IMG/VR virus record: IMGVR_UViG_3300030060_002738
Coordinates: 34,041 to 98,040 of that record
Reading direction: 5' to 3' (one strand)
Length of the DNA stretch: 64,000 nt
From: a virus
Part shown: positions 3,912-38,498 of the stretch, one piece after another
How positions within the stretch are numbered: the first letter of the stretch is position 1
Layout of the letters: each line of letters begins with the position of its first letter
Translations under genes and position numbers: made by a program
Notes under the pieces: model-generated
Databases searched by the model: none
Told to the model about the DNA's origin: nothing
Seen by the model: only the letters and a program-made list of their open reading frames with translations

Positions 3912-3915
3912 AAGC

Positions 3916-4679: not shown

Positions 4680-4693
4680 GCAAAGTGAGGGGT

Positions 4694-5430: not shown

Positions 5431-5431
5431 C

Positions 5432-5490: not shown

Positions 5491-5503
5491 TTTTCATAAG
5501 GTC

Positions 5504-5761: not shown

Positions 5762-5898
5762 GCTCAATAATCGAGTATAATGGGCAGGTTAAGAACGGCA
5801 GATTTGAAAGAAGCCTCTCATTATTGAGTTAATTGAATGAGGGGGCAGCCCCTACACCTTCAGGGGCTGTCTTCTCTACCCTCAAGGTGTTTGTTTAT

Positions 5899-5963
5899 AC
5901 AAAGTTCTACCACCATATGGTAATACAACAAACATGGATTGTAAAATATGAGACTATATAAAC
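5899..5963 (+). promoter_or_regulatory. dyad element copy 5 (right arm degenerate) plus TATATAAA
   Basis: ACAAAGT-TCTACC-ACCATATGGT; TATATAAA at 5955; preceded by hairpin GCAGCCCCT/AGGGGCTGT. Confidence 0.6.
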
Positions 5964-6310
5964 TTCCGAACGTTTAATATTTTTACACCCTTAACAGAAA
6001 CTCCAACCATATGCCAAAATTTTTTTCCTGTTGTTTTTTAATCTCGTTAGTTAAAATAAACTACTAGGGTGTTATCCGCTCATACGTTATGTCCCGTAAT
6101 AACCAACTTAAACGAAAATTTGTAAATTCGGGCGTTATACAAAAAGCGGCTTTTTATGCATTAACAGATACAAGTAAAAATGCATTATTTTGTAACAACA
6201 GACGATTTACAATTCCTTATCTTGGGAATAGAAAGAAAAAGACGAAAATAAATTCGCTAGTAGCGAAAAAATTCCGGGCCATTTTTTGAAAAAAGAAGGG
6301 GATAAACATA

Positions 6311-6784
6311 TTGCTACCTGTAAGAACCAACGAGAAGGGTGAATGGTTCTCAGGTTTTTTGAGAGAGAACGAAATTCAGGTCCGGTGGGGAGATGACTTC
6401 CTGACTGCTTTGGAAAAGGGATATCCTGAGCATGTCTGTGAGCGGTTGTTCGTTATTGGAAAGTTCGTAGATGACGAAGTTGTGGCCCACACATCGTTTG
6501 CTGATATGGGAAACTGGTACTTTATCGGTAACAACTACGTCAAACCGGGCCACAGGAAGAAGGGAATCCTGAAGGAAATGGTTTATCGAAGAAATCAGCG
6601 TTTGGCTCACTATCCTAAGATTGCAATCTTGAGACCGATAGAAGAAACAGTCCTAACTGAGTTAATTGGCTTCCTGCTGACCCTTGGATATTCAGAAGTA
6701 TTATCGTATGCCGATGTGTCGGATGTCATGCTAGAGTCCGAGTATGAGTTAATCTCAGACGAAGAACTATGGAGATGCGACTGA
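6311..6784 (+). CDS. GNAT-family acetyltransferase
   Basis: Acetyl-CoA motif A-like YVKPGHRKKGI; start may be TTG 6359. Confidence 0.6.
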   Translation: MLPVRTNEKGEWFSGFLRENEIQVRWGDDFLTALEKGYPEHVCERLFVIGKFVDDEVVAHTSFADMGNWYFIGNNYVKPGHRKKGILKEMVYRRNQRLAHYPKIAILRPIEETVLTELIGFLLTLGYSEVLSYADVSDVMLESEYELISDEELWRCD

Positions 6785-6845
6785 TGTATTACACGACTTC
6801 TTTTGATTTTGAGTTGCTATACAATCAGGGAGAGGTGTATCGAAA

Positions 6846-7124
6846 ATGAGTTGGGAAGATGTATTGAAGAAACCACTTATTCCATCAGAAGAAGAGGTTG
6901 AAGAGATGCTCGATTTTATGAACGTCAGTCCTAGAATGAAGATGGCGAAGTTAGAACGTCAGATTCTAAGAGAGATTGAGAAGGAAGGAGGTGCTTTGGG
7001 AATGAAGAACCTGAAGCAGTTTGCTGATGAGGATAAGTTGAAAGAAGTTCTATCTAGCATGGAGAAAGAAGGCAAGATATTCATGCACAAGGATGGAGAC
7101 ATCTACACACATGAACCGAAGTGA
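6846..7124 (+). CDS. small protein with N-terminal W-motif; possible winged helix
   Basis: Starts MSWEDVLKK. Confidence 0.75.
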   Translation: MSWEDVLKKPLIPSEEEVEEMLDFMNVSPRMKMAKLERQILREIEKEGGALGMKNLKQFADEDKLKEVLSSMEKEGKIFMHKDGDIYTHEPK

Positions 7125-17809: not shown

Positions 17810-19444
17810 ATGGTAGAAGAAAAAAGACCCACCTTGTTTCAGCGTTTAACCCGCAGAACAACCCCGAAGCCCCAAGACAGAACGATATACAATCCGGGTA
17901 TACAAGAGAAGGACACATCCTATCTGATAACCGCCCCAATAATCTATCATGTCACATATCAATCTGTGATTGCTAGAACTTGTATCACCCAATTAAAGAA
18001 TGAGATATTCAGAAGAGGATATACTTGGGAGGAGAAGTTTACCGCTAAATGTGGTGATTGTGGAAAGGAACACAAGCGAGCAGTAACAGAGTGTGTGGAA
18101 TGTGAAAGTACAAATCTCATAAAACCTGATAGAGAACAACTAAAGTACATACAGAAATTACTGGATGGCTATGTGAACAAAGGCGAGCAGATGTTCGTTG
18201 ATGTTCTGAAAGAAATGGAAGACGACCTGAACATCATGGATGATGCATACATGGTCATGGTCAAGGAATACTTCGTTGATGGAAACGGAGATATCCGTAT
18301 GCATCGAATCAAAGAGGTCTATCGTGGAGACCCTGTTAGTATGCACATATACGCTGATGAGAATGGTGAAAGAGGACATGAAGGATTCACCTGTCTAAAT
18401 CATCGAAACTTCATCAGCAAGTCGATGACTGATTCATGCGAGATATGTGGTTCTGAGTTGCATCCTGTGCATTATGTCAACAGGGCAAATGGAAAGGAGC
18501 AGTATTTCATTGATGGAGAGGTTCTACATTTCAGCAAGTATGCACCATCGAGACTCTACGGCCAGTCTCCGATAATGACTCTATGGAATCACATCACCAC
18601 GCTCATCGCTATGGAGAACTACGTCAACTCGTCATACACCAAGGCTAGAATGCCAAGGGGAATACTAGCAGTTCAAACTAGAAACATGGAATCAATGAAG
18701 TCCTTTTGGCGTGGTGTCAAAGAGAAGATGGAGCAAGACCCGCACTTCATTCCAGTAATGGGTATAGAGGGTGATGGAAAATCAGGAGCAGTCGAATGGG
18801 TCAAGTTCATGGACAGTCTCAAAGAGATGGACTACATACAAGTCAAGGAAGACTTGAGAGATAGAATCGCTGCCTTCTATGGAGTTAGTAAAATCTTCAT
18901 GGCAGATAACTCTGCCAGTGGCGGTCTCAACAACGAGGGTATGCAGATACTTGTAACCAACAGAGCAGTTGAGATGGCACAGACGATTTGGAACGAGTAT
19001 GTTTTCCCCTTTATGACGAAGGAGTTTGGGATAACGGATTGGCAGTTGAAACTACCGCCTTCTGAAGAAGAGGATGAGATTGCCAAACTACGAAAGAGAG
19101 AAATTGAAGTTAACGTAGCAGCATCAATCAAGAATCTAGGCTTTGAAGTTGACATGGATGACGAGGGAAGATTCACTTTCAAGAAGCCTGAACCAAAGCC
19201 TGAGCAACAAGGGCCGAAAAAAGAGGGAGAGGAGAAAGTAGAAACTGACCCATACGCAGGAACAGATATCGATGCAAGTCAATTAGGTCAGTTGCAAGAA
19301 CAGCAATTGATGGGAGGTCAAGGTGGTGGAGAGACTAGAAACAAACCATCTATGGAGACTGGCCCTGATAAGAGATTCACAGGATTACCTAGAGAAGCAG
19401 GTAATGAGAATGTTGATTCACGGACAGAGAGGAGAGTAGGTTGA
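17810..19444 (+). CDS. portal protein (with Zn-ribbon insertions)
   Basis: Position after TerL; EVLHF...RLYGQSP, PRGIL, IAAFYGV motifs of HK97-type portals. Confidence 0.9.
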   Translation: MVEEKRPTLFQRLTRRTTPKPQDRTIYNPGIQEKDTSYLITAPIIYHVTYQSVIARTCITQLKNEIFRRGYTWEEKFTAKCGDCGKEHKRAVTECVECESTNLIKPDREQLKYIQKLLDGYVNKGEQMFVDVLKEMEDDLNIMDDAYMVMVKEYFVDGNGDIRMHRIKEVYRGDPVSMHIYADENGERGHEGFTCLNHRNFISKSMTDSCEICGSELHPVHYVNRANGKEQYFIDGEVLHFSKYAPSRLYGQSPIMTLWNHITTLIAMENYVNSSYTKARMPRGILAVQTRNMESMKSFWRGVKEKMEQDPHFIPVMGIEGDGKSGAVEWVKFMDSLKEMDYIQVKEDLRDRIAAFYGVSKIFMADNSASGGLNNEGMQILVTNRAVEMAQTIWNEYVFPFMTKEFGITDWQLKLPPSEEEDEIAKLRKREIEVNVAASIKNLGFEVDMDDEGRFTFKKPEPKPEQQGPKKEGEEKVETDPYAGTDIDASQLGQLQEQQLMGGQGGGETRNKPSMETGPDKRFTGLPREAGNENVDSRTERRVG

Positions 19445-19545
19445 GCGACATACTTGAGTTTGTCAGGAAGTGGAAAGAAGAGATAGACAGACTCAATGCA
19501 GAAACAGATGAGAGACTAAAGAAATACTTGGAGGGAGAGAAGTGA
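19441..19545 (+). CDS. 34-aa microprotein
   Basis: Not in track; MSDILEFVRKWKEEIDRLNAETDERLKKYLEGEK exactly fills the gap, with 4-nt overlaps at both ends. Confidence 0.55.
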   Translation: MSDILEFVRKWKEEIDRLNAETDERLKKYLEGEK

Positions 19546-20342
19546 GTTGGTTTGACGCTATCAAGGAAGAATCAAAGTTCACTCCTGAGAATCTATCCGA
19601 AGAGAAGAGAAGACTGTTTGAGTCTGAGCCATCCTTTGAGGTAGACTTCCCTGATTATGAGCATCCTGATAATGAAGAGGAACTGCCAAAAGTCATCGCC
19701 ATGATGAAGAATAATGGTATTGACGAGGATGAGATGGAGGACTTAGACCAAAACAATATCGAGATGATGTTGGAGATTGTCGGTGAGGAGAAGGAAGACA
19801 GGGAGGATTTGATTGAAGATATTGATATTCACACAATCAAACTCAAAGTCAAGTATGGCAGACCAAGACCATACGAAATATCAGATGAGATAGAATCCAC
19901 AACTGATACGGATGACAGTCCATCTTTTCCAAGCGGTCATGCGATGGAGGCTTATGCTTTAGCGAAGATTCTAGGAAAACAGTATCCTGATAAGGAAGAG
20001 GAGTTGATGAAACTTGCCGGAAAGATATCACTATCTAGAGTAAGAATGGGAAATCATTATCCAAGTGACATAGAGGTTGGGAAGAAAGCAGGACTTCTAA
20101 TTGCTGATGCGTATCTATCTGAGTCAAAGATTGAGAAGTGGCAAGATATCCTGCACAAGAAAAGGAAAAGCAAGTCCAAGGTAAATCAGGCAGGAAACTA
20201 CACAAAGCCCGGTATGAGAAAGAGGATGTTTCAGAGAATCAAAGCGGGTAGCAAAGGTGGCCCTGCTGGTAAGTGGTCAGCGAGGAAGGCACAGTTGCTT
20301 GCTCAAAGATACAAGAAAGCAGGTGGTGGTTATCGTGGCTGA
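19542..20342 (+). CDS. PAP2-superfamily phosphatase fused to a basic DUF5872-like N-half; two W-motifs
   Basis: KxxxxRPRP, PSFPSGH, SRVRMGNHYPSD; C-terminal NYTKP...GKWSARKAQLLA...GGGY; starts MSWFDAIK, linker KWQDILHK. Confidence 0.85.
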   Translation: MSWFDAIKEESKFTPENLSEEKRRLFESEPSFEVDFPDYEHPDNEEELPKVIAMMKNNGIDEDEMEDLDQNNIEMMLEIVGEEKEDREDLIEDIDIHTIKLKVKYGRPRPYEISDEIESTTDTDDSPSFPSGHAMEAYALAKILGKQYPDKEEELMKLAGKISLSRVRMGNHYPSDIEVGKKAGLLIADAYLSESKIEKWQDILHKKRKSKSKVNQAGNYTKPGMRKRMFQRIKAGSKGGPAGKWSARKAQLLAQRYKKAGGGYRG

Positions 20343-24412: not shown

Positions 24413-26977
24413 ATGAAAACATCAGGCGTATCCTTTGAAAAGGAAACTAAGGCTCTATCAAAAAGAGTTCTAGATTTCTTTGAGAGGGTGCGTTACGCAT
24501 ACCTATCTGCAAAGGAGAACCCGAAGGAGTACGGTAAGAACTGGAAGGCAACCGTCAAATCCATCCGTGAAGAGTATGATGGGCTAGGAGAGTTCGCTAG
24601 TGAACTGAAAGAGAACGTCAAGGAGAAGGAACTCTTTGACGACAAGGTGTATGATGCTGAGAGTCTACTTGCTAGAAGGGTGTATGAAGACATAAAGAGA
24701 ATGCGATTTGAGTCAAAGGGAGCGGCAGACCCGTTTTCAGAACAACTAGGAAATAAGGTCTTAGAAGTCCTATTAGACGACAAGGCTACTTTCGCTGCAT
24801 TCATTCACTATGCTTTGAGAAGTCACTCCAACCCACTGCCTAAGAAAGCATGGAAAGAGAGCAAACTAAAGCCTGACGAAATAACTCAGGGATACATGGG
24901 ATTGGACTTAGAAGAGAGAGATATTCCTCTATACATCATTGAGCATTATGGTGATGATAAGGACTCTAGGAGAGTGCAAGGAAAGTTCAAAGAAGCACTT
25001 GGTATTTTAGAGGAAGTATACAACAGCAGTTATACAGAAGACAAGTGGGAAGCCTTGAGAGATATCGATATCGCAAAGTCCGAGGAAATGAAAGAGGACA
25101 TTGATTTCATCATACCCAACAAACCGATGTATAGAATCTTTGAGTTAGATGACATGAAAGACATCAAGGGGCTGAGTGGAGAGTATGTCGTACAAGAGAA
25201 GTATGATGGAATGAGAATACAAATCCAAAAGGTCAACAAGGACATCAAGATATACTCATACAATGAAAAGGACATCACGGATAAATGTCCTGAGATTGTA
25301 GAGAAGATGCAGAAAAAGGGGATTGGTGACTGCGTTCTAGATGGCGAACTACTACTGTTTCAAGGAGACGATGCACTACACAGAGCGAGTGTGATAACTC
25401 ACATCTTCAAGAAGAAGATACCCGATACAAGACTAAGAGCGCATGTCTTTGATGTTATGAAGCACGAAGGTAAGGACTTGATGGATGAACCTCTAAGAGA
25501 AAGGATAAACATTCTATTCTATCAATACTCGCAACACTCATCAGATGAATTGGCTTTCCCTTCCAAGAAGGATACAAGGATTGCTGACTCTATGGAGGAA
25601 GTCGGAGAGTATGCAGAGAAGATAATGGAGATGCCAACCTCGGAAGGTGTTGTCATCAAGGACATCGAATCTACATACTACATGGGTAGGAAGAAGAACC
25701 CTAAGTGGATTAAGTGGAAGAAGTTCGTGGATTTAGATGTCATAGTCCTAGAAGACAGGAAGACCAAAAGCGGTTTGCATTCATACACTATGGGAATAGG
25801 GCCATTGACTGCTGAACAGACTAGAGAGATGAAGACAATTGAACTCGATGATAAGAACTACCTCCCTGTTGGTAAGGCATTGAATACCAAAGTAGAGGTT
25901 GATATTGGAGATATCATTCGTGTCAAGGTTGATGAGGTTACTAAGAAGGGCAAGGGATTCAGTCTCTACTCTGCTAAAGTCATAGAGTTGCCTGAAGTAG
26001 AAGAGTCAGACAAGTTGGAGACATTGGAGCAACTAGCCACTAAGACGAAGAAAGCCCTGATACCGAAACATCCTTTCATCAGACCATCTGATTTGACTAG
26101 CCCTCTCACAGTCATATCAGAATTACAGAGAGAAAAGAAGAACAAGAGGAGGATAAAGAAATATCTTGTTACCGATTATGTTCATGGTGAAGCAGAGATA
26201 ATCTGTAAGCATGAACTAGAGGGGTTCACAATCTATGGGTTCGATGGTGATTCCCTAATGCAGAAGAATGCACTTTACAATATGGATGAATGGAGAGGAC
26301 AACTAGAGAAACTAATGAAGTCTCGGAAGTCCAAACTCAGAGTTGCAATTAGAAAAATCATAGAGGAGAATCAGAAACCCGTAGATTTCGATGAGTTAGA
26401 TGAGAAACTGAGAATTACCGAGGAAGATGCATATGATGAAATCTTTGAGGGCAAACCAAAGAACCTCTTGGCATGGATGAAGAATCAAGATGCTTTCATC
26501 TTTATTTCTCCTGACAAGTTTGATGTTTCTCCTGAGAATATAGAGAAGGATGAGGATAAGGAATTAACAGGAGAGTTTGAAGTCAGACAGCGTGAGGATG
26601 GAAACTTAGATTTCATAATAGAGACTGATAACAAGAGAATGGCTTGGTTAATTGACCTAGAAAAGCCTGAAGATATCTTTGATTTATTTGGTAAGTCAGG
26701 AAAGTTCCCTGCTATGGTATCAGAGAAGATAGACAGCACAAAAGTCATTGATAGCGGAGAACTGTTGTTTGGTGTTCAACGAGATGGTTATCATGAATAT
26801 CGAATGGAAGGAGATAAGTTCCAAACTAGAATACACTTCAGAGTTGTTCCACTAGATGAGAAAAAGTCTTGGATAGTATTTACAGGCAAGAAACAGGACA
26901 TGTTAGAAGATACTTCTGATGAAGGAATCATCGATATTAGAAAAGACAAGTTTAGTAATTTACAACTACCTGAATAA
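24413..26977 (+). CDS. lig: ATP-dependent DNA ligase with N- and C-terminal extra domains
   Basis: Motif I EKYDGMR, III LDGEL, IIIa VFDVM, IV EGVVIK, V WIKWK, followed by an OB-fold region. Confidence 0.9.
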   Translation: MKTSGVSFEKETKALSKRVLDFFERVRYAYLSAKENPKEYGKNWKATVKSIREEYDGLGEFASELKENVKEKELFDDKVYDAESLLARRVYEDIKRMRFESKGAADPFSEQLGNKVLEVLLDDKATFAAFIHYALRSHSNPLPKKAWKESKLKPDEITQGYMGLDLEERDIPLYIIEHYGDDKDSRRVQGKFKEALGILEEVYNSSYTEDKWEALRDIDIAKSEEMKEDIDFIIPNKPMYRIFELDDMKDIKGLSGEYVVQEKYDGMRIQIQKVNKDIKIYSYNEKDITDKCPEIVEKMQKKGIGDCVLDGELLLFQGDDALHRASVITHIFKKKIPDTRLRAHVFDVMKHEGKDLMDEPLRERINILFYQYSQHSSDELAFPSKKDTRIADSMEEVGEYAEKIMEMPTSEGVVIKDIESTYYMGRKKNPKWIKWKKFVDLDVIVLEDRKTKSGLHSYTMGIGPLTAEQTREMKTIELDDKNYLPVGKALNTKVEVDIGDIIRVKVDEVTKKGKGFSLYSAKVIELPEVEESDKLETLEQLATKTKKALIPKHPFIRPSDLTSPLTVISELQREKKNKRRIKKYLVTDYVHGEAEIICKHELEGFTIYGFDGDSLMQKNALYNMDEWRGQLEKLMKSRKSKLRVAIRKIIEENQKPVDFDELDEKLRITEEDAYDEIFEGKPKNLLAWMKNQDAFIFISPDKFDVSPENIEKDEDKELTGEFEVRQREDGNLDFIIETDNKRMAWLIDLEKPEDIFDLFGKSGKFPAMVSEKIDSTKVIDSGELLFGVQRDGYHEYRMEGDKFQTRIHFRVVPLDEKKSWIVFTGKKQDMLEDTSDEGIIDIRKDKFSNLQLPE

Positions 26978-27015: not shown

Positions 27016-28257
27016 GTGTTTGCTGAACAGGAGGTATTGATTAGACAAGAGAGTGCTAGTGATTTTACTATTCTCAAGTCAGATAATCTAGTAATTGGAG
27101 GATATGCTTCAATAGAAATAGTAGATAAACAGAATGACTTGATTACACTAGAAGCACTTGAAAAAGCCGTTAAAGATTTCATGAGTGAGAAGTCTTACAG
27201 AAACGTCATGTCAAATCATTCCAACGTTCAGGTAGGAGAGGTGATAGAGCAATACCGTGATTCCAATGGTACATTACACAAGACAGGTGTAGATGGTGTC
27301 GGATTCTATGTGGTTATCAAAATGAGAGATGACATAGAAAAGGCAAAAGAGATTAACAGAGGAATCAGAAAAGGCTCACTACGCTCTTTCAGTATTGGTG
27401 GACAAGCGATATCAAAGAGAGAGAGAAAATCGGAGGAATACGGGGAATACAACGAGATTGACAACTTAGAGTTGCATGAAGTTACTATATGTGAGAAAGG
27501 AATAAACCCTGAAGCGAAATTCGACATTTTAAAAGCGAAAGGAGGTAAAGAAATGACGGAAAAATTGACGAAAGCATTGGAAGAACTCAACGGTCTGCTA
27601 ACACAGGTTCGTGAAGTTACTGGTGAAACAGTCGCAAAAGAAGATGAATTGGAGACAATGGAAATGAAAGAAGATGAAAAAATGATGACCGAAAAGGAAG
27701 AAGTTGAGAGTATGGACATGGATGAAGATAAAATGTCTATGAAGGAAGACGAAGTTGAGAGCATGGATATGGAAGAGAAGGCTCTTGATGAAGACTCGAC
27801 TAGAGACTATGAGGCTGGCGAGAACGTTGTAGTAAACGGAAAGCCAGTGGCAGCACCTGCTGCACTATCAGTCTCTAAGGGTCTAGAAGGTACTGACTTC
27901 ACGACTCTCGACCTAAGTGCCGAGAATGTAGAGAAGGCTTACGAGGCTTACAAAGCAGAGCAACTAGAGGCAATGGCTTACGATAACCTATCGAAGCAAT
28001 TTGCTGACAGATTTGCTGCTGAACTTGAAGTCAAGAAATCAGCCGCAGAGAGAGCAGAATACGATGCTTCAACAGAAGTAGCCGCTCTCAAAGAGGAGTT
28101 TGCAGAACTACGCAAGTCTCTTACTGCAAAGGATGATGAGATAAGGAAAGCAACAGAAGTCGCTTTCTCTCTACCTGAAGGATTCCCAACCACTGCTGAC
28201 GCAATGGCTGAGATGTCATGGGGAGACATACACAACCTCGCAAGGAAGGTGAACTAA
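27016..28257 (+). CDS. HK97-type prohead protease fused to scaffolding domain
   Basis: GYAS..VDKQND, NH, SFSIGG, EVTIC..GINPEA; acidic coiled-coil C-half; directly upstream of MCP. Confidence 0.9.
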   Translation: MFAEQEVLIRQESASDFTILKSDNLVIGGYASIEIVDKQNDLITLEALEKAVKDFMSEKSYRNVMSNHSNVQVGEVIEQYRDSNGTLHKTGVDGVGFYVVIKMRDDIEKAKEINRGIRKGSLRSFSIGGQAISKRERKSEEYGEYNEIDNLELHEVTICEKGINPEAKFDILKAKGGKEMTEKLTKALEELNGLLTQVREVTGETVAKEDELETMEMKEDEKMMTEKEEVESMDMDEDKMSMKEDEVESMDMEEKALDEDSTRDYEAGENVVVNGKPVAAPAALSVSKGLEGTDFTTLDLSAENVEKAYEAYKAEQLEAMAYDNLSKQFADRFAAELEVKKSAAERAEYDASTEVAALKEEFAELRKSLTAKDDEIRKATEVAFSLPEGFPTTADAMAEMSWGDIHNLARKVN

Positions 28258-28258
28258 A

Positions 28259-29620
28259 ATGAGTGGATATATTAACACAGTAAAAGACTTAGAAGCAGCC
28301 ACCTACGGCTATGCTGGCGCATCAGGTAACGCCCTGTTGAAAGCGGCTGGTGTCGTTGGTGGTTTCGGAACGCCCCACGATGCAGGAAGCAACCCGTTTT
28401 CTGCTGCTAGTGGGTTGGGAGACCTATACAATGTTCTCTATGGACAGAAAGTATGGTCTATGCTAAACCAAGAGGTTAACCCTCTTGCTATGCTTGCAAA
28501 GAGACCCTACACATCCAGTGGATGGAGAGTCCTAAAGAGCAGAGCGCAGGGTGGCTCAGGTTCTGCATTCGGTATTGGAACTGGTTCAGAGGGTTCAGAC
28601 ACACCAAGAGCAGACAAGATTGGTGGTGTTGGTGAGAACGCAACTCTAGGAACTGGAAACGATATCCCACCGATTGCACCTCAGTATGAGAAACTATACG
28701 TCAGTCCAAAGACGATTGCTCACTTGTTTGAGTTCTCGGAACTTGGTATGGAACTTGCTGCTATTGATGACGGTGTTGGTGACATTCGTGCAATCGTTAG
28801 AGAGGACATGGGTAAACTACACGCAGAGACTCAGAGCAAGATGCTAGTAATGCCTCTTGAGAGGTATGATGACGGAACTGCAACAACCATCGAGCGCAAC
28901 TACACTTCTCTACTGAAGATAGTTTCCTCTGCTGGTGAGATTGCTGCTATGTATAACGCAAACCTATTGGACACTGGTGCTAACAACGGAGACAACTCCG
29001 CAGTTGTTGCAGATGTAGTAAGGCTATTCGGTACTTCCCGAACTGTCTCTGTATCGAGCAACGCCGCAACTGGAACTGCTTCCTTCTTGGATGCAGAGGT
29101 TGACTTCGGTGCAGGATATGCTTCCGGTGATGCTAGGGTTCTAACCCTGACCATGCTTAATGACATGATTAGGAGAATCAGGCAGAACGGCGGAAACCCC
29201 AAGGTTATCTTAACTGGCTACGACACTGTTCAGCACCTTGCTGACCTTCTACAAAGCCAAGAGAGATTCATGGACAGGAAGGAGATTGTGCCTACCCACA
29301 ACGGAGTTCGTGGAGTTAAGGGACAGGAAGTTGGATTCAGAGTTGCAACATACTACGACATCCCAATTATCCCAACCAAGGACATGCCATCCACTGGTGC
29401 AAACACAACCAACACTCTGAGTGACTTGCTCATCCTAGACACAGACCATCTGTGGCTATCAGTGATGAAGCCTACTCAATACTTTGAGGATGGTATCACT
29501 AGCGGAAACCCATTCGGTGTTGGCAAACTTGGAAACCAAGGGATGTACCGAACGATGGGTGAAACCGGATGTTCGTTCTTCAAGGGACAAGGAAAGATAA
29601 CCAACATCAAGAGTGCTTGA
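28259..29620 (+). CDS. major capsid protein (HK97 fold)
   Basis: Follows the protease; 453 aa; LYGQKVWSMLNQE, GGNPKVILTG, TYYDIPII motifs of archaeal tailed-virus MCPs. Confidence 0.9.
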   Translation: MSGYINTVKDLEAATYGYAGASGNALLKAAGVVGGFGTPHDAGSNPFSAASGLGDLYNVLYGQKVWSMLNQEVNPLAMLAKRPYTSSGWRVLKSRAQGGSGSAFGIGTGSEGSDTPRADKIGGVGENATLGTGNDIPPIAPQYEKLYVSPKTIAHLFEFSELGMELAAIDDGVGDIRAIVREDMGKLHAETQSKMLVMPLERYDDGTATTIERNYTSLLKIVSSAGEIAAMYNANLLDTGANNGDNSAVVADVVRLFGTSRTVSVSSNAATGTASFLDAEVDFGAGYASGDARVLTLTMLNDMIRRIRQNGGNPKVILTGYDTVQHLADLLQSQERFMDRKEIVPTHNGVRGVKGQEVGFRVATYYDIPIIPTKDMPSTGANTTNTLSDLLILDTDHLWLSVMKPTQYFEDGITSGNPFGVGKLGNQGMYRTMGETGCSFFKGQGKITNIKSA

Positions 29621-29631
29621 GGTGATTAGAG

Positions 29632-29967
29632 TTGACACACGCAGTTACTCTAGTTGCTGACCATAAGGGCGTAACTGCCCCAAAGGTCGCAGGTGACGAG
29701 TATGTAGTTGATGCAATAGTCAACATAACTGCATACGTTCAGGGTGGAATAACCCTGACTGCTGCTGAATTGGGTCTGTCTTCCCTACACTGTGTTCTAA
29801 TAACAGGTGTAGAGGAGATTGGACACAGTGCAAGGGCCGTCATCAGTACCGCAGGAGCATACGAGTCAGGAACAAGTGTCAAACTTATCCTGTCAACTGG
29901 CTCTGCACAACAATCAGGTACATCGGATGAAGGCATGGTGAGAGTCCGTGCCTACGGTAATCTCTGA
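29632..29967 (+). CDS. putative capsid decoration/minor head protein
   Basis: Small beta-rich protein directly after MCP. Confidence 0.55.
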   Translation: MTHAVTLVADHKGVTAPKVAGDEYVVDAIVNITAYVQGGITLTAAELGLSSLHCVLITGVEEIGHSARAVISTAGAYESGTSVKLILSTGSAQQSGTSDEGMVRVRAYGNL

Positions 29968-29995
29968 AATAACAATGATTAAGTGATAACGTAAA

Positions 29996-30033
29996 GTAGT
30001 AGCCTCTGCCCGTAATAGGGCAGGGGTTACTAC
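29996..30033 (+). terminator. 16-bp stem-loop after the MCP/decoration genes
   Basis: GTAGTAGCCTCTGCCC-GTAATA-GGGCAGGGGTTACTAC with G-U pairs; followed by an A-run, not a U-run. Confidence 0.5.
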
Positions 30034-30056
30034 CAACAAAAAAATAAGGTGTTATT

Positions 30057-30551
30057 ATGGCAAAAGTAAAGTTAGCAAGACATAGAGTATCCGGCCCTCT
30101 TCTGCTTAGAAGGGCTGGCAATACATACGCATTAACAGCGCAAGAAGATACTGTTGTTCCTTTGGGAATAGCAATAGGAATGCTAGGAGACGAAGGGCTT
30201 CTAGTTGAACTGGATTCTACTGATTCAACAGATGTTCTCGGTTTGAACGAGTACAACTTAACGTTACTCAAGAGGGAGTTTGGTCTAGAGGGAGATGCTA
30301 AGGCAGTCAAGGCTGCATTGTTCCCACCAGCCAAGAAGACCTTCATTCCTAATCTCATCAAGGAGACTCCCGTAGAGGAGACTCCCGTAGTAGAAGAGCC
30401 AGTAGCAGAAGAACCTGAAGAGGTTGAAGAAGAGGCTATTGACTACTCGCAATATACAGTGAAACAACTGAAAGAAATGCTTGAGGAAAAGGGACTATCT
30501 ACTGATGGCAAGAAAGCCGACCTAGTAGAGAGGATGTCGGGGGCAGAGTGA
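30057..30551 (+). CDS. SAP/HeH-domain protein
   Basis: C-terminal YSQYTVKQLKEMLEEKGLSTDGKKADLVER after an acidic linker. Confidence 0.8.
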   Translation: MAKVKLARHRVSGPLLLRRAGNTYALTAQEDTVVPLGIAIGMLGDEGLLVELDSTDSTDVLGLNEYNLTLLKREFGLEGDAKAVKAALFPPAKKTFIPNLIKETPVEETPVVEEPVAEEPEEVEEEAIDYSQYTVKQLKEMLEEKGLSTDGKKADLVERMSGAE

Positions 30552-30847
30552 TGTCATCACCTACCTGCAACAGCACAGGAGTTCTTTCTACAAGCACCGT
30601 TGCAGTAAAGCATCACTGCAAGATAATGAGCGTTCATGCTACATCAACAGCAAACGCTGTAATGACTGTCAAGATATGGGACAGTGACGATTCATCCACA
30701 TCAGGCAAGAAGGAGGTTGCCCGACTAGTTCTACACGCCGGAGGAACTGCTCAGACCATTGAGCAAGACCTACATGGTGTTCTTGTAGCAAATGGAATAT
30801 ACGTTCAGATTACAGGAACTGGAACTTGTTCAGTCAACTTTGCTTGA
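30551..30847 (+). CDS. small beta-rich putative virion protein
   Basis: Composition and NGIYVQITG-type ending. Confidence 0.55.
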   Translation: MSSPTCNSTGVLSTSTVAVKHHCKIMSVHATSTANAVMTVKIWDSDDSSTSGKKEVARLVLHAGGTAQTIEQDLHGVLVANGIYVQITGTGTCSVNFA

Positions 30848-30857: not shown

Positions 30858-31289
30858 ATGCCAAGTATAGATACAGATACTAGACTAATAATGACTGTTC
30901 TTTTTGTTGGAGCAGTTAGCGGAGTCAACGTTTACTTCTTCTCACAATACGGTACAACATTTGTCAATGCATACGGACCTTATCCAGTGGCTATGATATT
31001 TGGCGTACTCACGGTTGGGGGCATTGTTATATTGAAAGCGTTGTTTGATTTGATGATTAATGATTACATAGAGGACTTCCTACTTCAAAGACAGATAAAC
31101 TCGTATTGGAACAGAAAGGCAAGAGATGAGGAGAACCGTAAGAGAGTTAGGGAGTCATTTAGAGGCTTCCAACAGCAGTTTGGTACAACGCCAACAATAT
31201 ATGGCGACCAAAACCTTCCAATGATGCCACCACCATCACAGGAAGTACAAACGGTTAGTCCTACTTTCCTAACAGGTTTCAATGAGTGA
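30858..31289 (+). CDS. membrane protein (2 predicted TM helices)
   Basis: LIMTVLFVGAVSGVNVYFF and VAMIFGVLTVGGIVILKALF; GAGGTGA SD. Confidence 0.75.
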   Translation: MPSIDTDTRLIMTVLFVGAVSGVNVYFFSQYGTTFVNAYGPYPVAMIFGVLTVGGIVILKALFDLMINDYIEDFLLQRQINSYWNRKARDEENRKRVRESFRGFQQQFGTTPTIYGDQNLPMMPPPSQEVQTVSPTFLTGFNE

Positions 31290-31294
31290 TTTAG

Positions 31295-31516
31295 ATGGTA
31301 AGTGAAATCCTATTTGGGATGGATGAATCCACTCTCGCATATGATTTACAACGAGCGCATTCGGCTGACGTTTGGTTTCTAAGAGCAAGATTTTGGCTTT
31401 GGGGAACGTTTGCATCTATTGCAAGTTTCTTCGTAGGTCATGCTATTTCTCTTTGGGGAATTAATTTGTATGAAGTTGGATGGCATGTACTCAGTTCCCT
31501 TTGGGGCGGTCATTAA
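31295..31516 (+). CDS. small membrane protein
   Basis: Hydrophobic, aromatic-rich FWLWGTFASIASFFVGHAISLWGI. Confidence 0.7.
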   Translation: MVSEILFGMDESTLAYDLQRAHSADVWFLRARFWLWGTFASIASFFVGHAISLWGINLYEVGWHVLSSLWGGH

Positions 31517-31570
31517 CTTCTCAACCATTTTAATGCTCTTCGACATCCGACTCACTGACGAGGTGATAGT

Positions 31571-32242
31571 GTGTCGGTAATGGCAGGTTTCGCAATACTC
31601 ATTGTAGAAGCCATGAACAAGTTGTATAACCGTCTTCATGCTATCAATTTCGGCATCTATGGTGCGAGTCAAGCAGGTAAGACTACCCTGCATAAGCAAT
31701 TGATGACTAGGGGAGAAGTACCTGAGATACAAAAGCGTACAGTAGGCAGACACAGGGCTACTCGTAAGTTCGTAAAACTAGATGGTGATGCACATACCGT
31801 GAAGACTGCTGACATAGGTGGGCAGACTGTATATTGGGAGGAATGGGTTAGAGATATGCGAGGAAGACATGTCAAATATATCATCTTCATGTTTGATGAC
31901 AGGCATCTTAGCAAGCACTATGATATAGAGCAACAATTGTCTTGGACATTTCTAGTTGATACTATCTGCAACCCGTATTGGACAATTGGTGGTAGAAAGA
32001 AGAAGAAGCAAGAACATGATTATCCTTTGGCTGTCGGACTTTGGGCAAACAAGTATGACTTATGGAAAGACAAGTATCCCTACGATGGAAAAATAGAAGA
32101 CCACCCAATCTTTGAATCTTTCAAGCCCGGATTACAGAAGTTGAATGAGACTGGCATACCATGTCACAAATACATCGTAAGTGCAAAGTCTGATTCAGAA
32201 ATGGTTTACCGTGGAATATTAACAATGATAAAAGACTACTGA
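31571..32242 (+). CDS. Ras-superfamily small GTPase, Arf-like
   Basis: G1 GASQAGKTT, G2 RTVG, G3 DIGGQ, G4 NKYD, G5 SAK; N-terminal hydrophobic/amphipathic helix. Confidence 0.85.
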   Translation: MSVMAGFAILIVEAMNKLYNRLHAINFGIYGASQAGKTTLHKQLMTRGEVPEIQKRTVGRHRATRKFVKLDGDAHTVKTADIGGQTVYWEEWVRDMRGRHVKYIIFMFDDRHLSKHYDIEQQLSWTFLVDTICNPYWTIGGRKKKKQEHDYPLAVGLWANKYDLWKDKYPYDGKIEDHPIFESFKPGLQKLNETGIPCHKYIVSAKSDSEMVYRGILTMIKDY

Positions 32243-32302
32243 TACGTCAGATTAGTCAGGTCTTACCGCAGGGTAGACTTGGATTGATAGGAGAAACAGA
32301 AA

Positions 32303-32983
32303 ATGTCTATGCAATTTAACCCCCCTAGTTTGATAGGAGCAACGAACGCAACAGTGAACAGTGGTACTAATCCATTCATGGATAGAACAACTGCTGCAAG
32401 AGCAGCAGGGCCGATAATGCCATATGAATATAAATCTATGAAACCAAAGAAACAATTGAAAGAAATTGTTAAAGTTTTGAAACCTGAAAAGAAAACCTTT
32501 CTCAAAGTGCCTTACAGTTTCAAATACAACATAAATGATAGATGTGTAATATGTGGAACGCAAAAGGTATGGACTGCTAACGATAGCAGAAGACCCCCAC
32601 TTCCACTGCACAAGGTTCGCAAGGGATACCCAATGAGAGGAACGTACTGTGAGAAACACGCAGCCATACACATGCAATATGAGATGCTAGAGCAACAGAT
32701 ACTAGCAGAAGAACACGGACTTTCGTTTAGTGCTTACATACCATCTGCTAGAAGTTTAAATCCAGTGAATCTAGTAAAGTCAGGACCGATAACACAACTG
32801 AAGCAAGAGGACATCAATTCTCTCACTTCATTAGGTTGGAACATTACTCCTCCGGCAAATGAAAACTCATCAAAAGAAGAGCAGTTGTATGCTTTGATGA
32901 TAGAGAATACAGCCATGTCTGCTAAGATTAAATCTTTATTGACCGAAGGCGTTAAGATTGAGACACAGGAAGGTGGCGAGTGA
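32303..32983 (+). CDS. Zn-finger protein
   Basis: CVIC...CEKH. Confidence 0.7.
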   Translation: MSMQFNPPSLIGATNATVNSGTNPFMDRTTAARAAGPIMPYEYKSMKPKKQLKEIVKVLKPEKKTFLKVPYSFKYNINDRCVICGTQKVWTANDSRRPPLPLHKVRKGYPMRGTYCEKHAAIHMQYEMLEQQILAEEHGLSFSAYIPSARSLNPVNLVKSGPITQLKQEDINSLTSLGWNITPPANENSSKEEQLYALMIENTAMSAKIKSLLTEGVKIETQEGGE

Positions 32984-33693
32984 TGGGTGTATTCGGAACG
33001 AGCAACTCGGCCTTATCTTCTCAGATTAATACAATGGGGCAAGCCAACTTTAAAATGACTAACAATCTCTTAACTTTGCAAGAGAATCATGTGGAAGAAT
33101 TCTTTCAGTATCACGGAGAACCATTCCTAAGTGCATTTGAAAAGATGATGGAAGATGTGATGACGAGAGTTGTCAGTGAAATGCTTGTCAAGATGAAATT
33201 TGTATCTAACACTAATGGTGATTTAGAAATACATCCTGATTCCTTGTCAGAATTTACAAGCATCACACAAGAAAACATAGACTTGGACATTGTGAATCTA
33301 CTGGCGACTGCTGTTAATTCGGAAGTCATTATGCAGAGAAGAATGGCTAAACAACAATATCTAGAATCACAAGGCTTTACCTCACCTTCACAAGAATCAC
33401 AGATGGGTGCTGTGCAGCAACAAGGAATGTCACAGGCAATGCCACAAGCCGCATCTCCTAACATACAGGGCGCACCTGCTATGGGAGGAATGAACCAGCA
33501 GATGATGCAACAACAGATGGCCCTCAACAATCAATCAGGATATCCTATTCCACCTGCTGGATATGACCAATACAATAACCCGTATTGGATAGACCCCAAT
33601 ACTGGTCAACCATCATACACCCCACCAACTAGTGGTCTTGGACTGGCTGGTGCTTTGAGTAAAGGGGTTGCTTGGGCGAAGTGGTTAGCATAG
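32983..33693 (+). CDS. protein with Q/M/P-rich low-complexity tail and terminal amphipathic helix
   Basis: QQQGMSQAM...QQMMQQQM...YPIPPAGY...GLAGALSKGVAWAKWLA. Confidence 0.75.
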   Translation: MGVFGTSNSALSSQINTMGQANFKMTNNLLTLQENHVEEFFQYHGEPFLSAFEKMMEDVMTRVVSEMLVKMKFVSNTNGDLEIHPDSLSEFTSITQENIDLDIVNLLATAVNSEVIMQRRMAKQQYLESQGFTSPSQESQMGAVQQQGMSQAMPQAASPNIQGAPAMGGMNQQMMQQQMALNNQSGYPIPPAGYDQYNNPYWIDPNTGQPSYTPPTSGLGLAGALSKGVAWAKWLA

Positions 33694-33707: not shown

Positions 33708-35144
33708 ATGAGTCTGACTATCAGCAACAAGAATGATAGTAGGCTTTCAAGAACTTTCAACCTTGATGACTCACAAGTAAATGCTGCGGAAATAGGAACA
33801 GACAGTGATGCAGGAGTATTGCTGAAGATTCTAGTCCTAAAGATGCTACAACCTAAGATGAAAGACCTCGGTAACTTCAAAATTAAGTCTGTCAAAAGAG
33901 ACTTCAGGGTTCTGACATCTTTAACGAAAGAGGACTTTGAGAATGCTGAAGACTTTGAGAAGTACGAAGAATACATGAAGAAACTAATAAAAAAAGCGTT
34001 GGGATTACCTGTCGCTTCTACTGTTGAGAAACTAGAGGACAACCTGAAAGGAAAGAAAGGTGCTGCTCTCTTTGAGATATTTGGAGAAAAGAAGAAGGAT
34101 AGCATCTTAGAGAACATTATTGACAAGAAGGTAACTTTTGAGCAACTTCTCCTACCTGCATACTTAGGACAATCATACGAAGGAATAGCAGGAAAGCCAT
34201 CTAAGATAATGGATGTTGCAGACAAGGGGGGAAGCCTGTATGACTATACCAAACTTAAGCCATACATCAAGGCAGACGATAAAGAAGGAAAGAAGGGTGC
34301 AGATATTTTCGTTCGTGTCTCATGGGATTTGAAGGCATTTCTAATGTCCTTGCTAAAAGAAGAAGGCTGGCTACAACAGGAATCTTTCGACCTCCCACAA
34401 ATGGAAGATGTAGGTGAGCATCTCAGAGTTATTCCAAATAAAAAGGAGGAAAGCGATACCATCAATGTGAAACTTGGCAATCGTATGCTTACAGGCAAAG
34501 ATGAGTTGAAACTAACCGTAAAGACTTCAATGCAACAAAGCAGAGAATTACAGGATAAATTCTCCGGCAGAATGCAAACAGTGTCAGAAGAGAAAATAGC
34601 GGGTTTTGAGATATATGGTGACGGTTCTACACCAATAGAACAACAAGACGCATCTCCTGAAGGCAGGAGAGCCATGATGAAGTATATCGAAGATATGTTG
34701 GATGTGGATGATAAAATGAAAGAGAGGATGAGTGAGACTCTAATCAAAGGGTCTAACTTCCTAAAGCCCAAGAGAACCAAGAACATTGCAACTAAGGGAA
34801 GAGGGGGCAGAGTGGGTGGCACAGATAGAGAACCCACGGTTTCAGAACTAAGTAGAAATTACCTAGACCTAGATATTGGGACTATGCATTTTGAGGTATC
34901 TCTCAAGTCAGACGTAGAGCAACTGGTGGAACAACAGACTGAAACCAACAAAGGAATAAAGGAAGGAAAAGACCCTACTTGGGATATCTTTGACTATACA
35001 GTTGAGTTGGAGAAAGAAGGAGAGTTACGGCTTGCAGAAGAAGGTGCGTTCGTTGTTGCTGATAGGGACAAGGTAGAGGGTATATCTGATATACTCAAGG
35101 GTATTAAGACCTTCATGGGCAAGACCCGAAAATTAAGGAGTTGA
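33708..35144 (+). CDS. hypothetical protein (478 aa)
   Basis: Long ORF with AGGTGG SD; no motif recognised. Confidence 0.75.
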   Translation: MSLTISNKNDSRLSRTFNLDDSQVNAAEIGTDSDAGVLLKILVLKMLQPKMKDLGNFKIKSVKRDFRVLTSLTKEDFENAEDFEKYEEYMKKLIKKALGLPVASTVEKLEDNLKGKKGAALFEIFGEKKKDSILENIIDKKVTFEQLLLPAYLGQSYEGIAGKPSKIMDVADKGGSLYDYTKLKPYIKADDKEGKKGADIFVRVSWDLKAFLMSLLKEEGWLQQESFDLPQMEDVGEHLRVIPNKKEESDTINVKLGNRMLTGKDELKLTVKTSMQQSRELQDKFSGRMQTVSEEKIAGFEIYGDGSTPIEQQDASPEGRRAMMKYIEDMLDVDDKMKERMSETLIKGSNFLKPKRTKNIATKGRGGRVGGTDREPTVSELSRNYLDLDIGTMHFEVSLKSDVEQLVEQQTETNKGIKEGKDPTWDIFDYTVELEKEGELRLAEEGAFVVADRDKVEGISDILKGIKTFMGKTRKLRS

Positions 35145-36956: not shown

Positions 36957-38498
36957 ATGGCAAGTAATGAAGTATTCGTAGGCGCAAATGCACAAGTAGG
37001 AATGAGTCCTGAGTTGGACTTGTATTTTCAGGATGCTGTTCTCTCAAGCAGTACAACTCTAACACTATCAAGCGGTCAGCAAACCCTAGTTCATTTAGTC
37101 CCTGATTTGTATATCGGCTGCACCGTGAAGATTGGAGCATTGGCTTCAAACGATGCAACTTCATATCGAACTATCGTAGATAACACTACCACAACCATAG
37201 TCATAGATTCCGCACCAGTTGACTCCAACGGCAGTGCAGTAACTTCAGGAACTATGGATGCGACTATACTCTCGTTTGGCGCACCTCTCTATGCTTCTAG
37301 AGATGGCGGTACTAATCCTAGAATACACTCTGATAGTTGGCTAGGGCTAGTTAACACATTCACACCACCAAGCGTAGAGGTGGAGATGAAGCAACTCAAC
37401 CTTGCTGCCGCAGGTGGTAGGAACTTCGACTATCAGTACAAAGGAGCAGAGACAGTAAGCGGAGGCTCGTTAGATGTCTCTCTCAACAACGGCTCTTGGC
37501 TCTACTACGCACTAGGTAAACTATCCTACACCCTGTCAGGAACACATGCTACTCTAAGCACATCAAATGGAGAGAATGCAATTGCTGTCAATGCATCAGC
37601 AAACAGGATACTTAGGTCTTACGAACACAACAACTACCCTGAGATAGATGGTGGTGGTTCTGACTTGGCTATCAGTAACTTGCAGGTATACAATGGCTCA
37701 GACATGTTCAACTACACTTTCAGTGAAGCAGACGATGATGTTCTTCCATCCTTCGCTCTTGATGTAGTATACAGGAAAGCAGGACAGAGCAACTCGACTG
37801 CACTAGATTCCCTATCACCTAACGAGAACATGTACTCTAGAATCTTCACAGGATGTCAGATAAACACTCTCACTCTGAACTTTGAAGAAGGTCAGGAACT
37901 AAAGTGTTCAATGGATTTGGTTTCAAGAAGGGCTTTCGACCCTCCTGCTAACTATGTTCCCCTTGGTGGAAATGCATCCTTGACTTCTCTAAGCGATGCT
38001 GAGAATGGTAGGGGAATAGTCAATTACAGTTCCACGCTAACAGACAACTACCCCTTCCTATTCTCCGATGGAGACATCACATTGTTCGGTCAGTCCTTGG
38101 GTAAGGTGAAGGGCGGTTCTCTTGTAATTAACAACAACTTGCTACCACAGAGGTTCATTGGCAACTACAACAGACAGATTGCATCTGCTCATCTACCCGG
38201 TCAGAGAACGTATGAGTTGACTTTGACCATGTTGATAACAGACACGAAACTATGGGATGAGTTAAGGAATGACAACGAATCTAGCGGTGCTTTGAGATTG
38301 AAGTTCACAAAGGACTCAGGCGAGGAGATAGACATTCAACTTGCTGACTATCTAATTAATGCGGTTACTGTGCCTTTCCCTGAAGACAAAGGGCCAGTAG
38401 AGGTAGAGGCTTCCATAACAGCAAGAACGCTCACAACTGCTACCTACACAGGTAAGTGGGCAATCATGACTCTTGGCGGTAGTGCAACAGGTAATTAG
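36957..38498 (+). CDS. major tail tube protein
   Basis: Position; RIFTGCQINTLTLNFEEGQ, GQRTYELTLTM; followed by chaperone and tape measure. Confidence 0.75.
   Translation: MASNEVFVGANAQVGMSPELDLYFQDAVLSSSTTLTLSSGQQTLVHLVPDLYIGCTVKIGALASNDATSYRTIVDNTTTTIVIDSAPVDSNGSAVTSGTMDATILSFGAPLYASRDGGTNPRIHSDSWLGLVNTFTPPSVEVEMKQLNLAAAGGRNFDYQYKGAETVSGGSLDVSLNNGSWLYYALGKLSYTLSGTHATLSTSNGENAIAVNASANRILRSYEHNNYPEIDGGGSDLAISNLQVYNGSDMFNYTFSEADDDVLPSFALDVVYRKAGQSNSTALDSLSPNENMYSRIFTGCQINTLTLNFEEGQELKCSMDLVSRRAFDPPANYVPLGGNASLTSLSDAENGRGIVNYSSTLTDNYPFLFSDGDITLFGQSLGKVKGGSLVINNNLLPQRFIGNYNRQIASAHLPGQRTYELTLTMLITDTKLWDELRNDNESSGALRLKFTKDSGEEIDIQLADYLINAVTVPFPEDKGPVEVEASITARTLTTATYTGKWAIMTLGGSATGN

Follow-up and report, generated by a model that had tools for sequence, protein, structure and literature searches.

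Why a tailed virus of archaea should encode an Arf-like small GTPase in the midst of small membrane proteins is the question raised by a five-gene block in the window analysed here, a stretch of 64,000 nucleotides (positions 34,041 to 98,040) from IMG/VR record IMGVR_UViG_3300030060_002738. The source is a complete 98-kb tailed virus of the magrovirus type, which infects abundant ocean archaea. An earlier note made from the bare sequence had singled out the GTPase and its neighbours, and all five open reading frames were found at the coordinates it gave, on the + strand and with the flanks it described. Upstream lies the gene of the major capsid protein (SU10/HK97-like; 28259..29620, + strand; Pfam SU10_MCP, 1.7e-8), whose tblastn matches are solely archaeal tailed viruses (21-28% identity), and downstream that of the tail tube protein (36957..38498, + strand; Pfam Phage_tube_2, 2e-23). 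The cassette and the structural genes form one tightly packed, same-strand run. The placement between head and neck genes proposed in the earlier note is therefore accurate in so far as the block lies between the capsid and tail tube genes, and this in the present virus group only; the supposed neck genes match no recognisable family. No description of the five-gene block was found in the searchable literature.

The block is a strictly conserved unit. In the group of this virus (group 1) the GTPase is present in 55/55 loci, 1.4-2.0 kb downstream of the capsid gene, and all five genes are present in 47/47, counting loci that were fetched via the capsid gene and had enough downstream sequence. 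Strong purifying selection acts on each of the five genes (dN/dS 0.04-0.13). Three more divergent groups of marine viruses (groups 2, 3 and 4) share this gene order, and in them two to three small transmembrane proteins always adjoin the GTPase, as they do in group 1. Profile comparison of group 1 with group 2 by hhalign, in which controls gave E values of 0.05-0.2, connected the GTPases (E 1.7e-36), the Cys/His proteins (92.6%, E 4.6e-7) and, over their helical domain, the Gln/Pro-rich (Q/P) proteins (84%, E 7.6e-6). The cassette of group 2 is located about 24 kb from the capsid gene and directly follows the gene of a 2300-aa protein, while that of group 3 sits after a thermosome gene. Since the block is found elsewhere in the genome in groups 2-4, it moves as one unit and does not belong to the head-neck region. 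The synteny that the earlier note had proposed to look for thus extends to every relative examined, including the three deeply divergent groups. The GTPase is the most conserved gene within group 1 only; the idea that it is the sole gene conserved between groups 1 and 2 was rejected, as the capsid gene, 24 kb away, is 47-49% identical.

Outside these viruses the GTPase is rare, with only 59 relatives among 1.8 billion protein representatives. The sole match from a cellular genome lies on a contig of a 'Maricaulis' MAG; this contig has the entire cassette and looks like mis-binned viral DNA. Two relatives (P0049 and P0013) had no match in IMG/VR, and another (P0055) is a singleton on a 1.6-kb contig. 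The cassette is absent from haloarchaeal relatives with the same capsid-to-tail layout, and in HVTV-1, a haloarchaeal relative by its capsid, there are no such genes between capsid and tail. The earlier note was right that this is not a standard gene of Caudoviricetes: neither the collection of named phages nor the best structure matches in BFVD contained a comparable gene, and in BFVD the Ras, Rab and Ran proteins of giant viruses are the only viral matches among those listed. Metatranscriptome contigs (four runs from two studies) cover 27.3-30.6 kb, encoding the scaffold, capsid and SAP proteins, and almost none fall on the cassette, although such contigs cannot rank gene expression and a gap in their coverage carries no weight.

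The central gene (31571..32242, + strand) starts with GTG behind the Shine-Dalgarno sequence GAGGTGAT and encodes a protein of 223 aa. This protein is a genuine small GTPase of the Ras superfamily (TRAFAC class), with boxes G1 to G5 in order and a small G-domain fold (AF2 model, pLDDT 87.3). The five boxes listed in the earlier note are all present (G1, GASQAGKTT; G2, RTVG, with Thr58; G3, DIGGQ, Asp81-Gln85; G4, ANKYD; G5, SAK), as are the tryptophan seven residues after the switch-II glutamine (Trp92) and an IIFMFDD stretch. Residues G31, G36, K37, T39, D81, G84, N160, K161 and D163 are invariant in an alignment of 24 sequences from the four groups, and so is Trp92. All boxes are kept across 57+57 distinct sequences, in which the tryptophan is found at Gln+7 in 57/57 and 53/57. 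The position of the catalytic glutamine is variable in the family (Q/E/D/H), so the mechanism of hydrolysis may differ from that of Arf.

To which branch of the superfamily does this GTPase belong? Profile searches of the PDB were led by the Asgard protein GerdArfR1 (8oun; E 7.7e-9 and 4.6e-8), followed by Arl3, Arl8, Arl5 and G-alpha. The spacing from glutamine to tryptophan in switch II is the same in the GerdArfR1 alignment, and the signature DxGGQxxxxxxW is common to Arf, Sar and G-alpha. Arf is also the Pfam family matched by most members of the viral family (13/24 at E<=0.1, best 1.9e-15). In the VIA-align structure ranking the top 32 rows are all of the Arf family, with a margin over Rab of only about 2 Z units; the top PDB match in Foldseek, which alone cannot separate Arf from Rab or Ras, is the mimivirus Rab (5xc5). 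Identity to the best structure matches is 13-23%. With the Asgard ArfR1 as its best profile match, a structure ranking headed by Arf proteins alone, the tryptophan of switch II and the N-terminal helix, the protein leans, by sequence and by model, to the Arf/Sar/G-alpha side of the superfamily and not to MglA or Roc. An affiliation with those prokaryotic GTPases, which the earlier note had named as the competing outcome, did not emerge: Pfam Roc scores 23.9 bits against a cut-off of 27 and on the N-terminal half only, and no Roc or MglA chain is present among the best profile and structure matches listed.

The label Arf-like nevertheless needs qualification. The window's GTPase scores below the gathering threshold of Pfam Arf (PF00025; 16.1 bits against 22.3), and NCBIfam recognises in it a generic small_GTP domain only, again below threshold. 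Its interswitch is 4-5 residues longer than that of Arl8 in the HMMER alignment, and much longer inserts occur in groups 2-4. Ala80 precedes Asp81 where Arf has an aromatic residue before DxGG (Trp66 in Arf1), and the SAK of G5 is Ras-like. On its sequence features the protein is Arf-like and very divergent; it is not an Arf. As a lead only, an Atlas look-up returned clusters of prokaryotic proteins that are in part assigned to the Arf family of Pfam.

The N-terminus, which the earlier note had described as a hydrophobic/amphipathic helix, upholds the first half of that description. It is strongly hydrophobic (SVMAGFAILIV..., Kyte-Doolittle 2.57 over 11 residues), and residues 2-22 are predicted to be helical in the AF2 model (pLDDT 57-73). 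The helical moment of this N-terminus is reached by 365/2000 shuffles; by the same comparison it exceeds shuffled sequences in group 3 (1/2000) but in neither group 1 nor group 2. The segment is thus hydrophobic and, by this measure, not demonstrably amphipathic. The G domain is further interrupted by two inserts, a polybasic hairpin (GGRKKKKQ) and a second one after G4.

The two genes upstream of the GTPase encode small membrane proteins that belong to no Pfam or PHROG family. The first (30858..31289, + strand; 143 aa), with its ATG start behind GAGGTGAT, has hydrophobic spans at about residues 9-30 and 40-68 (hence 2-TM protein) and a C-terminal tail, first basic and then Pro-rich, that is predicted to be cytoplasmic. 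Its dN/dS is 0.05 relative to locus L013. Membrane proteins of the same size occupy this position in groups 2-4, but homology across groups is not demonstrable (hhalign E 0.015). The second (31295..31516, + strand; 73 aa) contains 14 aromatic residues, six of them tryptophan, and one moderately hydrophobic span (KD 1.44). Its conservation is 59-100% within group 1; hhalign between groups 1 and 2 was not significant, and a counterpart with a similar W/G/F-rich span is found in group 4 (L176, 7984-8193).

Downstream of the GTPase follows a basic Cys/His protein (32303..32983, + strand; 226 aa) of an orphan family that comprises 1055 unnamed clusters without a Pfam domain; the protein itself has no Pfam match at E<=1, and none to OapC. 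The earlier note had called it a Zn-finger protein, and the residues of a possible zinc site (CxxC...CxxHxxxH; C81-x2-C84 ... C116-x2-H119-x3-H123) are indeed present, but these ligands are not conserved throughout the family: C81, G85, G108, T114, Y115 and C116 are invariant in the alignment of groups 1-3 (A2), and the ligands are lost in group 4. Its AF2 model is poor (pLDDT 55.4), and a complex prediction with the GTPase (alignments A1 and A2) returned a score of 0.01, which is no answer for or against binding. The last gene (32980..33693, + strand), whose start overlaps the Cys/His gene by 4 nt, encodes a Gln/Pro/Gly-rich protein of 237 aa with a helical N-domain, a low-complexity region (17% Gln, 11% Pro and 12% Gly in the C-terminal half) and a Gly/Ala/Trp-rich hydrophobic tail. 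An ITQENID motif is common to this protein and group 3.

What could such a cassette do for the virus? The function that we regard as the most likely, although we hold this view tentatively, is that of a late-acting membrane complex under the control of a GTP switch, with egress as its probable purpose. The block would form a self-contained module of this magrovirus-type tailed virus of archaea, co-transcribed and expressed late, and its five proteins would assemble into a complex at the host membrane, on the cytoplasmic side. The GTPase, as the virus-specific core, would use its hydrophobic N-terminal helix and the conserved polybasic loop to attach to the membrane and would cycle between GTP and GDP states. 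Within the membrane it would be partnered by the two small integral proteins encoded upstream, and the conserved Cys/His and Q/P-rich proteins, which are soluble, may act as regulator and scaffold. The job of the complex would be to time or carry out a breach or remodelling of the membrane, releasing virions from a host that lacks murein. In its most specific form, the proposal is that of a new viral egress machine, in which the Arf-like GTPase is the timer or switch that recruits regulator and scaffold to the viral membrane proteins, opening or budding the murein-less archaeal membrane; so stated, it is possible, if on balance somewhat unlikely. Haloarchaeal tailed viruses lyse their hosts without the cassette, so it cannot serve archaeal tailed viruses as a general egress device.

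The alternative that survives best, although we judge it unlikely, is a manipulation of the host membrane that does not end in lysis. The viral GTPase could mimic or override a small-GTPase system of the host, such as vesicle-budding ArvABC, and the outcome, which we hold to be just as unlikely, could be a division block, cell enlargement, vesicle shedding or a membrane-bound platform for assembly or replication, with no opening for release. Membrane-recruiting switches are characterised by an Arf-like fold combined with an N-terminal helix, and ArvA with its zinc-ribbon partner ArvC provides a functional precedent in Euryarchaeota (PMC10927574). The Cys/His gene comes directly after that of the viral GTPase, and the low-complexity Q/P-rich protein with its hydrophobic tail may resemble membrane-tethered scaffolds. 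However, ArvA is reported mainly in Halobacteriota, Methanobacteriota and DPANN, and the presumed host lineage is not mentioned (Mills et al., PNAS 2024, PMC10927574). ArvB (OapB, PF09846) has no match in the 98-kb genome, while a control search found it in Haloferax and Methanosarcina. For ArvC (OapC, PF09845) the five virus records gave only a weak, sub-threshold match outside the window (G000, 19361-19438), and the Cys/His protein, as noted above, does not match it. Moreover, the tightly packed run that the cassette forms with structural genes suggests a late role rather than an early takeover of the cell.

Another late function that has nothing to do with breaching the membrane is quite improbable; examples would be the exclusion of superinfecting viruses, a role against host defence, or a chaperone that uses GTP in assembling the very large proteins of tail or fibres. 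Superinfection exclusion typically involves small membrane proteins, and the group 2 cassette comes directly after the gene of the 2300-aa protein. Genes for exclusion and counter-defence are, however, usually variable and sporadic, whereas this block is present without exception (47/47) and ranks with the best-conserved genes of its group, and no defence-related family was matched in a search that had PADLOC outside its scope. Least probable of all is that these are virion-associated or ejection proteins, packaged or placed at the head-tail junction and acting at entry, for example as a conduit in the host membrane like that made by the ejection proteins of some phages: hydrophobic proteins whose genes lie among structural genes sometimes turn out to be ejection proteins, as established for phages such as P22 and T7, and the block does lie between capsid and tail tube genes in this virus group, but the cassette is far from the capsid gene in group 2 and beside the thermosome gene in group 3, haloarchaeal relatives do without it despite their shared capsid-to-tail layout, and a GTP switch would have no obvious nucleotide supply inside a virion.

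A late, GTP-switched membrane complex, probably serving egress, thus remains our preferred reading. For tailed archaeal viruses, a 2024 review describes the egress machinery as completely uncharacterised (PMC10791045), and the present module, strictly conserved, portable and centred on an Arf-like switch, offers five concrete candidate proteins for the question of how these viruses leave their hosts. In the surface ocean, magroviruses are described as belonging to the most abundant viruses, with the uncultured Marine Group II archaea as hosts (PMC5434244). Should the egress-machine proposal be true, tailed archaeal viruses would have their first identified release system in this cassette, and the prokaryotic world an example of membrane remodelling driven by a GTPase beyond Asgard archaea and eukaryotes. 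The GTPase family also shows that Arf-type features, namely a membrane helix at the N-terminus and the switch-II signature of Arf, Sar and G-alpha, are not confined to those lineages but occur in a large pool of viral genes, and hence bears on the origin and spread of Arf-type switches.

How does the cassette compare with known systems? With the Arf family (Asgard GerdArfR1, PDB 8OUN/8OUM, bioRxiv 10.1101/2024.02.28.582541; Arf6, Arf1, Arl1, Arl3 and Arl8) the viral GTPase has in common a helix before the G domain, DxGGQ followed by tryptophan at +7 and, in this virus group, TVG in switch I. It differs by its longer interswitch, the alanine before DxGG, two inserts (one of them the polybasic hairpin), the G5 SAK as in Ras and Rab, an N-terminal segment that is plainly hydrophobic rather than demonstrably amphipathic, a catalytic glutamine replaceable by Glu, Asp or His, and by being encoded by a tailed virus of archaea. 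Giant viruses of eukaryotes likewise encode GTPases of the Ras superfamily (e.g. mimivirus Rab, PDB 5XC5), but those viruses captured their Rab, Ras and Ran genes recently from eukaryotes, whereas the family described here has no close cellular counterpart and resides in a prokaryote-type tailed virus.

Phage holin cassettes also group small membrane proteins among late genes, but to our knowledge no described lysis cassette includes a GTPase. The 2-TM protein has a holin-like layout of transmembrane spans and a charged cytoplasmic C-terminus (PMC10791045 for the definition of holins), a resemblance only, since no cassette protein matched a holin, endolysin or other lysis family in Pfam or PHROG; unlike holin-endolysin systems, the block encodes no wall-degrading enzyme. 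The nearest functional precedent is ArvA-ArvB-ArvC (OapABC) of Haloferax volcanii, which acts on the cell membrane: ArvA, a small GTPase whose N-terminus forms an amphipathic helix, shares the arvABC operon with the zinc-ribbon protein ArvC and drives vesicle formation (PMC10927574). The two GTPases are compared by description only. No ArvA structure appears among the PDB matches listed for the viral protein. Both systems combine a small GTPase of the archaeal world that carries a hydrophobic or amphipathic N-terminal helix with an operon partner of the zinc type, and the viral block has, in addition, two or three small membrane proteins and the Q/P-rich protein.

From its sequence, the block of five plus-strand genes at 30858-33693 is a candidate membrane cassette that is portable, abundant and undescribed, and its GTPase represents a family of Arf-like GTPases that is new and virus-specific. 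The genes encode a 2-TM protein (30858-31289), a Trp-rich membrane protein of 73 aa (31295-31516), the GTPase (31571-32242), a Cys/His protein (32303-32983) and a Gln/Pro-rich protein (32980-33693), with gaps of 0-61 nt, and they lie between the capsid and tube genes. The earlier note had described this GTPase and its flanking genes, an observation that our analysis bears out. Between the GTPase and Cys/His genes, a spacer of 60 nt holds a predicted RNA hairpin (32247-32292; -17.9 kcal/mol, z -3.4) that none of 200 shuffled sequences equaled; since the spacer is only about 14 nt long in more distant relatives, the hairpin is not general to the cassette. Immediately 3' of the cassette lies a hypervariable gene of 478 aa (33708-35144). 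Some relatives match it at only 30-43% identity although the genes on either side are 90-99% identical; in others it is undetectable, and proteins of 412-796 aa occupy its site. The site may be a hot spot of diversity, perhaps one that serves host interaction.

All the GTPase motifs previously reported are present (P-loop GASQAGKTT, RTVG, DIGGQ, IIFMFDD, NKYD and SAK), as are the Trp seven residues after the Gln of DIGGQ (Trp92) and the hydrophobic N-terminus. Searched as a single sequence, the protein gives only sub-threshold Pfam matches (Roc 5e-5, MMR_HSR1 1e-3, Arf 8e-3), and its top PDB matches are Arl8 proteins at an E-value of about 0.05. Searching 1.8 billion protein representatives yielded only 59 relatives, with no known cellular GTPase among them. 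Profiles built from full-length family members, one of 15 sequences and one of 24 from four virus groups, have as their best G protein in the PDB the Asgard Arf GerdArfR1 (PDB 8OUN; bioRxiv 10.1101/2024.02.28.582541), at 7.7e-9 and 4.6e-8, followed by Arl3, Arl8, Arl5 and G-alpha, with Rab33B and KRas lower. Matched singly to Pfam, the 24 members hit Arf (13), Roc (11), MMR_HSR1 (11), SR-beta (9) and Ras (6). Among viral structures in BFVD, all of the best matches come from giant viruses of eukaryotes and are Ras, Rab or Ran proteins. A confident AlphaFold model (pLDDT 87.3, pTM 0.85) consists of a helix at residues 2-22 and a canonical G domain, with an additional beta hairpin (136-145) bearing a polybasic loop and a second insert following G4. 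Within the superfamily the GTPase thus sits on the Arf/Sar/G-alpha side, yet in a family of its own. It is Arf-like rather than a true Arf, because its Pfam Arf score is sub-threshold, its interswitch is 4-5 residues longer than that of Arl8, an Ala occupies the aromatic position preceding DxGG, its G5 box (SAK) is Ras-like, and the 'catalytic' Gln varies within the viral family, being replaced by Glu, Asp or His. In one distant relative, P0028 (264 aa, from a 10.9-kb Logan contig), a Cys-rich insert (CxxC...CxC) follows the G4 box, and this GTPase may have gained a metal site of its own.

The cassette is carried by a virus that agrees with magroviruses as they have been described (PMC5434244), given its capsid matches, its size and its hundreds of marine metagenomic relatives. 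The source IMG/VR record is 98,040 bp long and rated complete by CheckV, the window being its bases 34041-98040. The head genes of the window encode a large terminase, portal, prohead protease and SU10/HK97-type major capsid protein (28259-29620). Past the tail tube gene (36957-38498) come several genes for proteins of roughly 2000 aa or larger, and the remainder of the genome encodes a family-B DNA polymerase. The capsid protein matches only archaeal tailed viruses, at 25-28% identity for haloarchaeal HVTV-1, HCTV-1 and HCTV-5 and 21-29% for methanogen viruses. Amid the head-morphogenesis genes are also a PAP2-type lipid phosphatase (19542-20342; Pfam 7e-15) and an ATP-dependent DNA ligase of 854 aa (24413-26977; 2e-29). 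Soon after the capsid gene, separated from it by one 111-aa ORF, a 164-aa protein (30057-30551) has at its C-terminus a SAP domain (Pfam 4.4e-10), a DNA-binding motif typical of eukaryotes. The scaffold, capsid and SAP-protein genes (27300-30600) match marine metatranscriptome contigs at 90-99% identity in runs from two studies, consistent with close relatives being present in those RNA libraries; DNA carry-over is possible too.

For group 1, the close relatives, IMG/VR contains at least 178 sequences closely related to the GTPase; in 80 loci fetched with it, none of the five genes is missing where the contig extends that far. To avoid circularity, a second set of 80 loci was fetched via the capsid gene: the GTPase lies 1.4-2.0 kb past the capsid gene in all 55 loci with at least 2.7 kb downstream, and the five genes are complete in 47 of the 47 with at least 4.2 kb. 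The GTPase is 73-99% identical within the group, conserved equally to or more than the capsid protein. As synonymous sites are saturated in most pairs, dN/dS was taken from the closest informative pair (GTPase 0.039, 2-TM protein 0.05, small protein 0.13, Cys/His protein 0.065).

Three more divergent marine groups carry the cassette as well. Group 2 (127 IMG/VR loci, records up to 118 kb) encodes membrane proteins of about 190 and 81 aa, a GTPase 30-33% identical, a Cys/His protein of 290-340 aa, a Q/P-rich protein of about 200 aa and an 80-aa 2-TM protein, preceded by the gene for a 2300-aa protein (176-7108 of locus L113). The same order recurs in group 3, directly 3' of a thermosome-like chaperonin gene (4820-6481 of locus L166), and, with an inserted acidic protein, in group 4 (metagenome contigs up to 81 kb). 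In alignments the group 4 Cys/His protein has lost its ligands, so that zinc ligands are not universal in this family, whose 1055 clusters at 90% identity are all unnamed and without a Pfam domain. Comparing profiles of group 1 with those of group 2 lends support to homology of three proteins, the GTPase (1.7e-36), the Cys/His protein (4.6e-7) and the Q/P protein (7.6e-6); the two upstream membrane proteins score 0.015 and 0.07, against 0.05-0.2 for mismatched controls. Because the group 2 cassette sits about 24 kb from a capsid gene 47-49% identical to that of the window, the block moves as a unit, and only in group 1 is it placed between head and tail genes. The earlier interpretation is partly supported: the Arf-like character stands, and the head-neck position does not extend to the other groups. 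Nothing resembling the cassette is present in HVTV-1, although its capsid-to-tail layout is the same. Across 185,579 species genomes the sole match is a 28.9-kb contig (NZMJ01000101.1) of a 'Maricaulis' MAG filed as alphaproteobacterial, which bears the whole cassette with a GTPase 71% identical and which we take to be a mis-binned magrovirus-type viral contig. The magrovirus papers, as far as they are searchable, make no mention of a GTPase.

The cassette conserves a GTP switch, which begins with a hydrophobic helix and bears a conserved basic loop; genes for small integral membrane proteins always lie next to that of the GTPase, and the two soluble proteins are conserved too, one ending in a hydrophobic Gly/Ala/Trp tail. 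The five proteins may form an assembly at the cytoplasmic side of the membrane, where the GTPase would set the time or place of their action. We tentatively rank egress first among the possible roles, since the TM spans and the charged cytoplasmic tail of the 2-TM protein are arranged as in a holin, and since the literature offers no other explanation of how tailed archaeal viruses lyse their hosts (PMC10791045). Remodelling of the membrane without lysis seems a less probable role, for which the vesiculation operon ArvABC of Haloferax offers a precedent. Other late functions are unlikely, and a role as virion or ejection proteins is more unlikely still, mainly because the cassette is both portable and fixed. 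OapB finds no match in the virus genome and OapC none in the cassette, so the likeness to ArvABC is one of working only. Outside the window, and unrelated to the cassette, a 113-aa frame on the minus strand (19361-19438 of the virus record) gives a weak, sub-threshold OapC-like zinc-ribbon match (E 0.007, 12.9 bits). In Haloferax, vesicle budding is driven by a small GTPase with an N-terminal helix, from an operon that encodes a zinc-ribbon protein too (PMC10927574), and by how it works, rather than by membership, ArvABC is the nearest functional precedent for the viral cassette.
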